Source: a virus
IMG/VR virus record: IMGVR_UViG_3300035698_022014
Location: 11,602 to 75,601 of that record
Length of the DNA stretch: 64,000 nt
Reading direction: 5' to 3' (one strand)
A model generated the notes under the pieces. That model was given only the letters and a program-made list of their open reading frames with translations, had not been told where the DNA came from and made no database searches. The translations under genes and the position numbers were made by a program. Positions 27,560 through 32,304 of this stretch are shown one piece after another (the stretch's first letter is position 1; each line of letters starts with the position of its first letter).

Positions 27560-29271
27560 TTATTTTGTATACTTCAACTTTCCACAATCATACACCTTTA
27601 AAAACCCATGATCAAGTGCGTTCTGATGCTCTGTCAATTCGGGACAAAAAGTGTCAGGATATTTTGCTTGGAGTTTAGCCCTTGTCATTTGTCTCCGAGG
27701 GATTCTCCTCTTTGTAGCTCTACAGTAGTAAGTGTAATCTGGTTTTGTCTGATGAGCCAGATTCATCCCCGACTTTTGATATATGTTGTTTTCAAAATCA
27801 GTCCACAACAAATCAGCATACGTGTAGACGTTAGTGACATTTGACATTATTTTTGATAGTCCACCCACAACAGGGAGTTTTGACGCAAATCTTGTAAGGT
27901 CGTGACTGTCACCATACCGTTTAAATGTCGCAACAGAAACCAACTGACCCTCATGCTCGAGGCCTATGTTGAAAGAGTGATTGACATGCCCTTGAATGTG
28001 ATGATGCTCGAGAAACTCCTTCAATCAACATCATATACTACTTTTGTCTTTCTTGCCCCTATAGATGTGTCTGATGGCTCCAAAAGAGACATGATTTTTC
28101 GTCGGATTAGATCTGGACCATCTCTTAGATCATCTTCAAATAGGTGGATCAATCTTATGCCATTGTGTGCAGCATCTTTCTTTTTGTCTAAATGATAATT
28201 TGTAGGTTTGAATTTCTCAGAATGCCAATAACAACCGTTTATTTCAAACCCTATGTTATAATCAGGGAGAAAGATATCAATCTCCTTGCGGTCACTTAAC
28301 AATGTTCTATCATTGAATATAGGGGAATAATCGGCTAGCCATCCACTAACTAAATGCTCGTAGGATGAAGGTTGTCCAATTCCCTTTCTCAGAATGTCGA
28401 AACTATCAAGCATCTCTGCTACAATAGGGTGGCTACATCCTAGAAATTCGCCCATTTGCTCGAGTGACATCGTTTTATAAAGTTCCTCCAACAGAACTTT
28501 GTCGTAAAGACCTTCAATGTTTTCTCTTGGCGTTCCTTTTGTAAACACGCCCAGTTTGCGTATTTGTGTGTTGATTGTGTGATTCTTGACATTGTATTTT
28601 TTCGCAATTTGTGGTATTGTGTATTGCTCTCTTAGTTTACGTAGAGTATCAGCACTCTGTATATCTATATGAATCTCTACATGCGTGTTTCTTTTTGTGT
28701 CTTCTCCAGACTGTTTAATAATGTCTGATGCTGTCTGAATGCTACAGCCAATTTGTTTTGAGCATTGTGTAACATTAGAACCGCTATGCCACTGTTTCAA
28801 TATCTGTGTTTTGACACTCTCTGTATCGAACTTAAACTTGTCAAACTTTTTGTACTTTTTGGCCCACTTGGTTACAGTAGAGGGTGCGTGTCCTGTAATT
28901 GCTGATATTCTAACAATTGTCTCGCACGTATCGAATAGGATAGGATCGAAAGGGATTGATTTAATTGCAACAAGATTGCTAATTCTCACAAACCTTCGAA
29001 CAGAATCAACTGGAACCTCTAACCTATCTGCAACGACTCTACAATTGATAACTCCACTAATATAATCGTCCTGAAACTCACAGAACCTACGCGTGACAAT
29101 ATCATAGAATGTCTCTTTCAAGGTTACACCCCAACGATCTGCAAGCTCCTGCACAGACGAGGATGATACGCCGTACGTATTTGCAATGGAAGAGAAGCTC
29201 TCCCCTGAATCAATTAGATCCTGAAAAGAGCTTCTAGTAAGAACAGACGTAAGTGTTCCTCTCTTAGACAC
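27560..29271 (-). pseudogene. Hef-like homing endonuclease broken into two ORFs (28021-29271 and 27560-28024)
   Basis: HTH-like repeats, EIDIFLP..IGFEINGCYWHS, GIRLIHLFED; the usual continuation KEFL..HHIQG...VVGG.SK...YAD...VYDCG lies in the -1 frame. Confidence 0.75.
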
Positions 29272-29978
29272 TATGCGCGATTACCTGCAAACTGCTGCTG
29301 CATCTTCACATTGTCAAAGAACTCTTGCTTGACACTTTGGTTGAAGAATTGTCCCCTAAGTTCCGTTGTCTGAGTCAATGAGCTGTTTGCCATCACTCCT
29401 CGTGTGGAACAACATCCGTGTGTAGCTTGGATGTAGACAGCAACATCGCGCGTTTCTGTTGCCTTGCTGATCTCGTTAGCAATGTCCATCGTCAACTGTT
29501 CTTGGAGTGTTCCACGACGTGCTGCATGCTGAGCAATACGAATATACTTCGAGAGTCCGATCACACTTGACGATGGTAATACTCCGATGTATGCTACACC
29601 TTGAACGTCCTTGTGGTGGTGACTACACATTGAGTGGATCTCTGCACGAACAACAATCATTCCGCCATACCGTGTATCAGGATCAGTGTTTGGGAATGAA
29701 GTTACAGGTGGTGGTGGTGCGTAGCGACCTTGCATCGTTTCGTTGATGTACATCTTTGCAAGACGTTTTGCTGTTCCCATTGAGTTTGGATCTGTGTTGC
29801 GATCGATAATTAGGGAGTCGAGTACACCTTCAAACTTAATAGCCAATTCATCGATCAGCATGGCCGTTTCACCTTCTTCAATGAATGTCGATATGTTGTC
29901 ATTTGCCCAGAAACGGCTATTACTATCTTCTAGCCGCGCTCGTATTGTATCGGAGATTGATTTGTTTTCTTTCGTCAT
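29271..29978 (-). CDS. folE: GTP cyclohydrolase I
   Basis: TAKRLAKMY, SMCSHH, IGLSK..R, LQEQLT, HGC...RGV; ATG at 29978. Confidence 0.95.
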   Translation of the reverse strand: MTKENKSISDTIRARLEDSNSRFWANDNISTFIEEGETAMLIDELAIKFEGVLDSLIIDRNTDPNSMGTAKRLAKMYINETMQGRYAPPPPVTSFPNTDPDTRYGGMIVVRAEIHSMCSHHHKDVQGVAYIGVLPSSSVIGLSKYIRIAQHAARRGTLQEQLTMDIANEISKATETRDVAVYIQATHGCCSTRGVMANSSLTQTTELRGQFFNQSVKQEFFDNVKMQQQFAGNRA

Positions 29979-29988
29979 GTTTGTAGTG

Positions 29989-30035
29989 CCTTTCAGATTG
30001 TGTTTTATGTCAGTGGAAAGGAGCGAGGACTGACA
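29989..30035 (-). promoter_or_regulatory. Candidate H-type pseudoknot sequestering the folE Shine-Dalgarno sequence
   Basis: P1 UGUCAGU/ACUGACA; loop CCUUUC complementary to the SD GAAAGG; A-rich linker. Confidence 0.55.
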
Positions 30036-30091
30036 CACTCGGCCAACAGAAAAACCTTACGGTGCAACCTGTTGGAAAGTCTTGTTGCTTT

Positions 30092-30532
30092 CTATTGTTG
30101 TTCCCATGGGAACGTGGCCCACGGTGCATCAGCCTGCAACATCATAGCTGTCACACCACTGTTGAATATGCTGTCTACTTTTGTAACAAGTGATGCATAC
30201 ATGACGTTGTCTGTGCCACCATACGCACTGCTTATTGAGCTAAAAGTATGACCAGTATCATTGATATCATCAACAAATACAACTCTTTTACCTGCTTTTA
30301 TGCTTTCTTTTAGTGTGGAGTTGTGCTCGCACTTCTGCACATCACGTGTTTGCCAGACAATAGTTTGAAGTGGTACCTCAAGATGGTGTGATAGGTAAAG
30401 AGCAGGAAGAAGCCCCCCTCTTGTAATTCCTACAATAATGTCAGGACGATGTGTCTCAACGTGCGTCCTCAGGTGTTTGCACATAACATCAATATCATTG
30501 TAGCTGATATACATTTTAGCGACTATGCTCAT
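30092..30532 (-). CDS. Purine phosphoribosyltransferase (Gpt-like, type I PRT)
   Basis: VGITRGGL.PA, VFVDDINDTGHT, W..FPWE. Confidence 0.9.
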   Translation of the reverse strand: MSIVAKMYISYNDIDVMCKHLRTHVETHRPDIIVGITRGGLLPALYLSHHLEVPLQTIVWQTRDVQKCEHNSTLKESIKAGKRVVFVDDINDTGHTFSSISSAYGGTDNVMYASLVTKVDSIFNSGVTAMMLQADAPWATFPWEQQ

Positions 30533-30602: not shown

Positions 30603-31487
30603 TTACGCTAAACTAGCATAGAGGTGGATCTGAAGATTGAGAACGTAACCATGTTCGATGCAGTATTGTGCTGCATATTCATGATTGCGTTGATTTGCAC
30701 TCATGTCCAACAATCCAGGTTCCCAGAAGCTAATCACCTCATCGACTGTAGATCTTTCTCCGATCTCAATTCTGTTTGCTCCACTGTTCCGCAACTCCTT
30801 ACTCTTTATTGGCTCGTCGTTGTATACGTTCATTGGACTGATGTAGATTGGCTTGTTTGTCTTTTTGTGCTATTCTTGTGCCCACTCTGGGATTGAGCTG
30901 TATGGACTGTCCGGATCCGCTTCCATCACGAACTTCAAACAATCTGCATCGATCATGTTGTCTTTGTGTGGTTTGATGTACTTGCCCATCATTCCACCCT
31001 TCTCAATGCACTTTGGACTCATAACCAAAGTCGTTGTTTTCGGAATGCTTGCTTGATGAACGATCCCATTAGACTCGATTTGAGTATTCTTAAATACCTT
31101 ATTCATCCGTTCCAACAGCGGTCCAATATTCTTCTGTAAGAGAGGTTCGCCACCCGTCATTACAAGAACCATTTGCTTTTTAATTCCCAGAACCGGATCA
31201 TGCAAAGTCCAATTAGGACGATTTATTCCTTTGTCTGAATAGAATTTGTCTATTGCTGTTTCTATGTGAGCATCAATCTCATCGAACGTCATCCAATCAC
31301 CATCATCAAAGAACGTGTCACAAAAACTACATGCTAGATTACATTTTGCTAATCTAACAAAGAAAGCTGGTTCACCTCGGAACGGCCCTTCTCCTTGTAA
31401 AGTCATGAACATCGATGTGACGAATAATTTGTGTTCTTCTACGTCCTTAAAATATTTCTGTCCTACTATCTCGTTTTGCCCAAACAT
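30603..31487 (-). pseudogene. queE: 7-carboxy-7-deazaguanine synthase QueE interrupted by one in-frame TAG (30870-30872)
   Basis: TLQGEGP, CNLACSFCDT radical-SAM motif, TGGEP, ESNG, SPK; the same frame continues past TAG to the conserved LNLQIHLY end. Confidence 0.85.
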
Positions 31488-31645
31488 GTATAATTGTCCT
31501 TATTTATTGAGTGTTAAATTTTCATCGATCAGTTGAAACTGTGTGTGGTTCACTTTACGGTGCGCCACGAGAACAGTCATAACATCTTATATTTTGTTTC
31601 TGTTGTACTTTTATCTGAATAGGTTACAATTTTTGTTAGATGTGA

Positions 31646-32233: not shown

Positions 32234-32240
32234 TGTAATT

Positions 32241-32293
32241 ACTCCTTTGATAGTCGGTCGGAGTGTTTAGAGAGGGTCGATCCGTAGTCCTCT
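32241..32293 (-). promoter_or_regulatory. Candidate preQ1-I-like pseudoknot with anti-SD upstream of queD
   Basis: AGAGG-ACUACGGAUCGAC-CCUCU-CUAAACAC-UCCG, then SD AAAGGAG. Confidence 0.5.
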
Positions 32294-32304
32294 TGTTTGA
32301 TCTA

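Follow-up and report, generated by a model that had tools for sequence, protein, structure and literature searches.

Our comparative analysis indicates that folE of a T4-like phage is very probably preceded by a conserved leader RNA in which a pseudoknot sequesters the Shine-Dalgarno (SD) sequence. The phage is known from a virus fragment of 75.6 kb in IMG/VR that derives from a salt-lake metagenome; we analyzed a stretch of 64,000 nucleotides of this fragment (hereafter the window). An RNA pseudoknot sequestering the folE SD had been proposed from the letters of the window alone, and this proposal is borne out by covariation of its two helices, P1 and P2, across related phages. Judged by sequence comparison, the RNA motif of the leader is not catalogued, and its functional kind is a known one. 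We describe it as a putative riboswitch, a translational OFF element, and put the chances of that assignment at about even.

Genes around folE lie on the minus strand, in the order queD-like gene, QueE-like gene, phosphoribosyltransferase (PRTase) gene, gap, folE (Table 1). In the list of open reading frames folE begins at an in-frame GTG (30038), giving a product of 255 aa and making the 3' half of the leader coding. We rejected this start and place the true one at the ATG at 29978, because in relatives the spacing up to the ATG varies by numbers of nucleotides that are not multiples of 3.

Table 1. Genes and leader elements at the folE locus of the window.
Feature	Position	Strand	Remark
queD-like PTPS gene	32233-31646	minus	
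QueE-like radical-SAM ORF	31487-30870	minus	
PRTase gene	30532-30092	minus	upstream neighbor of folE
PRTase-folE gap		minus	113 nt; holds the leader RNA
Whole folE leader element	29976..30091	minus	~115 nt, begins just past the PRTase stop codon, ends with the folE AUG
Px 5' strand, GCAAC	30084..30088	minus	candidate pseudoknot with P0
Px 3' strand, GUUGC	30064-30068	minus	
P0 hairpin domain	30043..30075	minus	CCAACAG 30075-30069 with CUGUUGG 30049-30043
P0a inner hairpin, ACC-GUAA-GGU	30063-30054	minus	inside P0
U-run inside P0	30053-30050	minus	U70-U72 invariant, 29/29 leaders
Candidate helix Pa, linker CGAG	30038..30041	minus	with CUCG 30027-30024 (5' end of P1 loop)
P1 hairpin	30008..30035	minus	UGUCAGU 30035-30029 with ACUGACA 30014-30008, 7 bp
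P1 loop, CCUCGCUCCUUUCC	30028-30015	minus	14 nt, pyrimidine-rich
P2 5' strand, anti-SD CCUUUC	30016..30021	minus	inside P1 loop; changes in step with the SD across relatives
L3 linker, UAAAACACAAUCU	29995..30007	minus	A-rich; starts U-(U/A)-A-A-A-C; AAYCYGA block directly 5' of the SD
P2 3' strand, SD GAAAGG	29989..29994	minus	10 nt before AUG
Spacer, CACUACAAAC	29988-29979	minus	10 nt
folE start codon, AUG	29978-29976	minus	
folE, GTP cyclohydrolase I	29271..29978	minus	235 aa; Pfam PF01227 (GTP_cyclohydroI), E 6.5e-37; putative regulated gene

The sequence-only reading had described a 7-bp P1, a 6-bp P2 between the P1 loop and the SD, an A-rich linker and a 10-nt spacer, and we find all four at the positions it gave. 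Its extent for the element (29979-30035, ~55 nt) is right for the 3' half. The whole element runs from 30091 to 29976, measures ~115 nt and has two domains, the upstream helices P0, P0a and Px having been missed. Within the P1 loop, CCUUUC is the perfect complement of GAAAGG, and a single C (30015) stays unpaired. A 7-bp stem whose loop carries a 6-nt complement in the last 22 nt arose in 484/100,000 dinucleotide-preserving shuffles of the 113-nt gap (0.5%), and the pattern is suggestive only when the window sequence is taken alone. Nested-only folding of the window leader was no better than in shuffles (z = –0.37), a null result that is expected because the key helix is a pseudoknot. The leader region matches neither a sigma-70-like promoter nor an intrinsic terminator, which fits control at the level of translation.

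Homologous leaders were gathered through FolE-based locus searches, a degenerate DNA pattern and two covariance models, R1 and R2, both of which match the window at 29975-30091 (125 bits, E about 1e-22). We collected 32 leaders, 29 of them distinct (alignment A5), each placed directly 5' of a phage folE and ending at its start codon. The FolE proteins encoded after them fall into two families with only 38% identity to each other, across which leader nucleotide identity is 59–77%, and a 37-nt leader block is unchanged in an IMG/VR contig whose FolE is 72% identical to that of the window. The gene upstream of the leader varies (PRTase, QueD, a radical-SAM protein or unknown ORFs), and the leader stays constant with folE. 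The neighborhood is a 7-deazaguanine cluster in every case, that of the window included. Five phage records (76–283 kb, three rated complete) carry one leader copy per genome, and a repeated intergenic element was ruled out on this ground.

Among cultured phages, the closest relatives, namely Rhizobium phage RHph_I1_18, Sinorhizobium phage Phosso and Vibrio phage 2.275.O, lack a homologous leader; the FolE of the nearest cultured phages is at most 60% identical to that of the window, and many homologs with 69–75% identity occur in ENA and Logan. A DNA search of the phage collection with an 800-nt region gave no match, and a search with the 14-nt loop pattern gave 117 matches, mostly by chance, the pattern being too unspecific. 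A metagenome scan returned nothing beyond contigs known by then and chance matches, a genome-contig scan returned one false positive (an archaeal MAG without the hairpin), and model R2, run on 95 more distant folE loci, detected no new leader except L255. Some FolE relatives with 80–86% identity have no leader, their folE being preceded by a plain SD or by overlapping stop and start codons, so that the control is dispensable. At two leaderless loci (L136 and L137, FolE 71% identical) the PRTase end ...FPWEKD-TAA overlaps the folE ATG (TAATTATG), which shows that gain or loss of the leader has taken place inside a close clade.

A third FolE subgroup (MSHP..HK..) has reduced or altered leader forms, represented by L272 and L269 (both at about 2400-2500). 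L272 has a short P0 and a 5-bp P1 (GGUGG/CCACC) and keeps CCUUU/AAAGG; L269 has instead an 11-bp helix, CUUGACCAUUC/GAAUGGUCAAG, that ends just before the SD. The covariance models detect neither form.

Covariation across the folE leaders of related phages, proposed with the original reading as a check on it, was found, and it supports both P1 and P2. In alignment A5, 90.4% of cells form standard pairs, against 75.9% in shuffles (0/500 reach the observed value); these and the following figures are raw counts, with no correction for phylogeny, from leaders of uncultured phages. When the partners were slid by 1–3 columns, only 36–46% of the cells were paired. P1 is paired in 96.5% of cells over the 29 distinct leaders, with changes on both sides in 4/7 pairs, more than 10 different stem sequences and a closing U-A replaced by C-G or A-U. 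P0 is paired in 97% of cells with both-side changes in 6/6 pairs, and its inner hairpin P0a in 97.5%, with GNRA, UNCG or longer loops as caps in relatives. G-U wobbles are confined to the mRNA sense, showing that the structure belongs to the RNA and not to the DNA or the opposite strand.

Two further helices, both possible pseudoknot helices, join these parts with less certainty. Px, which would link the 5' end to the inside of P0, is paired in 95% of cells; its pairs are mostly near-invariant, and three leaders replace G-C by A-U on both sides. We consider this helix probable, with moderate support from the alignment. Pa would pair the linker between P0 and P1 with the beginning of the P1 loop and is paired in 74.6% of cells, with a C.C mismatch in the commonest class. 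One of its pairs switches from C-G (13 leaders) to G-C (10) and another from G-C (8) to A-U (4), and a contiguous-helix permutation test of linker and loop was not significant (4151/20,000), so that we list Pa as tentative. Invariant unpaired nucleotides sit at the junctions, among them AA before Px, U before P0, C after P0 and the U-run inside P0. The same group takes in the CCU that opens the P1 loop, the stretch U-(U/A)-A-A-A-C behind P1 and AAYCYGA before the SD; within L3, U125 is conserved in 27/29 leaders, A127 and A128 in 29/29 and C130 in 24/29.

The helix between loop and SD carries the regulatory argument. P2 is possible in 29/29 leaders, with 5–8 bp between the 3' part of the P1 loop and a purine block, and this paired block lies 5–12 nt before the AUG in all 29. 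Most leaders have 0–1 nt between the P2 5' strand and the P1 3' strand. The two strands of P2 change together, matched changes of length included: loop and SD are CCUUUC/GAAAGG in the window, CCUUUC/GAGAGG in L006, CCUUUUC/GAAAAGG in L228, L253 and others, CCUUC/GAAGG in L220, CCUCUU/AAGAGG in L236 and L233, UUCCUUC/GAAGGAA in L229, L234 and L241, UCUCUUC/GAAGAGG in L256 and UCUCC/GGAGA in L216. Cognate loops and SDs pair better than permuted ones (0/20,000 permutations with 29 leaders, 23–33/20,000 with the 17 distinct loops). A covarying anti-SD/SD helix 5–12 nt before the start codon, the generic feature of SD sequestration, is thus found here. The spacer AAGG as an alternative, ON-state partner of the loop gave a weak signal (198/20,000 permutations). 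Duplex energies of P2 range from –5 to –9.5 kcal/mol, and by this estimate the helix might form without any ligand.

We compared the leader with the catalogued RNA families by cmscan against Rfam 15, scanning the window at the gathering threshold, the stretch 29800-30250 at E<=10 and 10 diverse relatives at E<=1. In these scans the leader has no counterpart in Rfam 15, preQ1-I, -II and -III and the folE/THF-II motif included, and the preQ1-III model (RF02680) has no match at E<=10 in five phage genomes (G000-G004). The closest RNA in architecture is nevertheless preQ1-III, represented by the Faecalibacterium prausnitzii queT leader (PMC11625349). Like the folE leader, it is about 100 nt long, has two domains and belongs to 7-deazaguanine chemistry, and it acts on translation, as the folE leader is predicted to; it combines a 5' pseudoknot, in which the 5' end pairs with a junction inside a hairpin domain, with a separate stem-loop whose loop is an anti-SD pairing with the SD in the 3' tail. 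Held against this architecture, the folE leader has the loop/SD helix, has a moderately supported 5' pseudoknot in Px, and has its anti-SD hairpin 3' of and outside the closed P0, whereas that hairpin is nested inside P2 in preQ1-III. The two also differ in the SD pairing, which covers the whole SD (5–8 bp) in the folE leader and two nucleotides in preQ1-III, and in the gene controlled, folE in phages and queT in Ruminococcaceae.

Next to preQ1-III, preQ1-II also comes close in architecture. In preQ1-II (RF01054; queT leaders of Lactobacillus rhamnosus and Streptococcus pneumoniae; PMC11625349) the whole SD enters a pseudoknot helix with a loop and translation is switched OFF, as we propose for the folE leader; preQ1-II has another helix layout, is found in Bacillota before queT, and its model does not match. 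THF-II, the folE motif of Rhizobiales, likewise occurs only before folE, buries the ribosome-binding site and is predicted to be a translational OFF element acting on GTP cyclohydrolase I (PMC6800512). Exclusive association with folE also marks our set, in which 32/32 leaders end at the folE start, with one copy per genome. However, THF-II consists of one hairpin of ~55 nt, which comprises P1, P2 and an internal loop and holds the ribosome-binding site in the right shoulder (3' strand) of P1, and it is bacterial and belongs to the folate pathway (PMC6800512), whereas the folE leader is a two-domain pseudoknot in which the SD pairs with a hairpin loop, lies in phage deazaguanine clusters and has no Rfam match.

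The reading that we favor is that the folE leader is a cis-acting RNA of ~115 nt that would control translation initiation of the phage GTP cyclohydrolase I. Covariation shows that its 5' domain consists of P0 with the inner P0a, and that P1 and P2 in the 3' part form an H-type pseudoknot that buries the ribosome-binding site. With the pseudoknot closed, the 30S subunit could not bind and no FolE would be made. The 5' domain and the conserved unpaired nucleotides would provide the binding site for a small molecule that stabilizes the closed form, and the resulting OFF switch would throttle the first committed step by which GTP is diverted into phage 7-deazaguanine DNA modification. A small-molecule effector is favored because the layout is that of the preQ1-II and preQ1-III translational riboswitches (PMC11625349), because THF-II, the other folE-specific leader, has the same logic (PMC6800512), and because three more helices, retained over so wide a divergence, are more than simple attenuation would call for.

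The gene content of leader-bearing phages narrows the choice of ligand. QueC (PF06508) is absent from two complete leader-bearing genomes (G001 and G002, one of them a near-relative of the window phage) and present in two others (G004 and G005), so different deazaguanine end products are expected behind the same leader. That the leader occurs in both QueC-plus and QueC-minus phages makes a sensor specific for preQ0 or preQ1 unlikely. The most plausible candidates are therefore those common to both pathways: CDG, a 7-deazaguanine core irrespective of the group at C7, an early pterin intermediate, or a signal of purine or folate status. We tentatively suggest, as a possibility of rather low probability, a new phage-specific riboswitch class that would sense CDG, the bare 7-deazaguanine core or another intermediate or product of 7-deazaguanine synthesis that the pathways with and without QueC have in common, and would shut off FolE translation.

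Two other explanations of the same structure are serious rivals to a small-molecule riboswitch. The leader could be a protein-bound translational operator, in which the SD helix is closed or opened by a protein of the phage or of its host, such as a RegA-like repressor, ribosomal protein S1, FolE itself or a different enzyme of the pathway. T4-like phages autoregulate translation through RNA operators and pseudoknots, as in the gene 32 leader pseudoknot and the RegA operators, and both the structure and the folE specificity of the leader fit a protein as well as a small molecule. At the loci compared, however, no candidate RNA-binding gene accompanies the leader, the neighboring genes being variable, and a multi-helix fold with invariant junction nucleotides placed before the first pathway enzyme is the pattern of a metabolite sensor (PMC6800512, PMC11625349). 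We hold a protein operator to be unlikely on balance.

The second rival dispenses with an effector altogether: the leader would lower FolE translation or set its timing, whether through constant attenuation, slow refolding, a link to translation upstream, or a response to temperature or ions, and no specific molecule would be sensed. RNA thermometers work through pyrimidine-rich or U-rich anti-SD pairing. The loop/SD helix is also fairly stable by itself, close relatives have lost the leader yet keep folE, and reduced variants exist (L272). Against this, an attenuator needs no 5' domain with two or three more covarying helices, and about 20 invariant unpaired nucleotides have been kept despite the divergence of FolE to 38% identity. 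These points leave tuning without an effector at a low probability, comparable with that of the protein operator.

The sequence-only reading had drawn an analogy to preQ1-I, and a divergent member of that class sensing preQ1 or preQ0 through a conserved C would share with the folE leader the H-type topology, the A-rich 3' linker, the SD inside P2 and the 7-deazaguanine pathway context. Type III of preQ1-I (RF00522; E. coli yhhQ leader) likewise folds as an H-type pseudoknot, in which a pyrimidine-rich loop covers an SD of the AAGG type and an A-rich 3' strand follows (PMC11625349). Yet the search with the Rfam preQ1 models, which had been proposed as a check, returned no match to the leader even at permissive thresholds (E up to 10). 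The dimensions differ as well: preQ1-I is about 30–34 nt long, has a P1 of 5 bp and keeps an invariant specificity C, as UC or AC, immediately 5' of the P1 3' strand (PMC11625349), whereas the folE leader has a P1 of 7 bp, a loop of 11–16 nt and a P2 of 5–8 bp, about twice the size of preQ1-I, together with an L3 of 13–15 nt and a covarying 60-nt 5' domain. The unpaired C just 5' of the P1 3' strand, to which ligand reading had been assigned, is not supported in that role, because the putative specificity base is variable: of the 29 leaders, 19 have C at column 115, 8 have U and 2 have a gap, and the A-C that follows it is base-paired and covarying. Complete relatives of the window phage also lack QueC, so synthesis of preQ0 or preQ1 is not expected in them. 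Membership in preQ1-I is largely refuted on these features and strikes us as highly improbable; the earlier qualification that the element would be a variant or a new class was right, in that the leader is not a canonical preQ1-I member. Finally, chance complementarity or a DNA-level signal (terminator, promoter or repeat) with no RNA function, in line with the 0.5% of shuffles that reproduce the single-sequence pattern, is refuted by covariation and retains next to no probability, given compensatory changes in four helices, strand-specific G-U wobbles, a single copy per genome always before folE and the lack of a terminator or promoter match.

To our knowledge, phage-encoded riboswitches acting on the phage's own metabolic genes are rare. 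In the library searched, we found no paper that connects a riboswitch with phage 7-deazaguanine (DpdA-type) DNA-modification clusters, and none that describes a folE or deazaguanine riboswitch of phages. As an orphan riboswitch candidate the leader would be new, and its possible ligands form a short list. If the riboswitch assignment is true, phages would use translation to control how much GTP flows into anti-restriction DNA modification, and the leader would supply a small, naturally occurring OFF switch that responds to deazapurine- or pterin-like molecules. Under the new-class proposal, the phage would meter the host GTP diverted into DNA hypermodification. Should no ligand exist, the leader would still clearly exemplify a translational operator that T4-like phages from the environment have conserved.

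Several minor features of the surrounding cluster are recorded here. The QueE-like radical-SAM gene (span 30603-31487, minus strand) appears as two ORFs, 30870-31487 (205 aa) and 30603-30833 (76 aa). Downstream, the start of a 416-aa ORF (28021-29271, minus strand) overlaps the folE stop; its Pfam matches are to helix-turn-helix families only (HTH_28, HTH_23 and HTH_29), and the Pfam search gave no match to a TGT/DpdA or T-fold family. The short queD leader (32234-32304, minus strand) contains AGAGG...CCUCU, a possible loop/tail pairing, and has no Rfam match at the gathering threshold. The queE leader (31488-31645, minus strand) contains a hairpin, GUGG-CGCACCGUAAAGUGAA-CCAC, especially at 31552-31563. 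Its apex, GCACCGUAAAGU, is identical in 11/12 nt to the P0a apex of the folE leader, GCACCGUAAGGU, and models R1 and R2 do not match the queE leader. This likeness may be local or due to chance, since the P0a apex varies freely in relatives. One leader-bearing phage contig (L214, 14073-14181) partially matches the alphaproteobacterial/permuted tmRNA models, with E about 0.004, which is under the gathering threshold; the match is cut by the end of the locus, and the host may perhaps be alphaproteobacterial.
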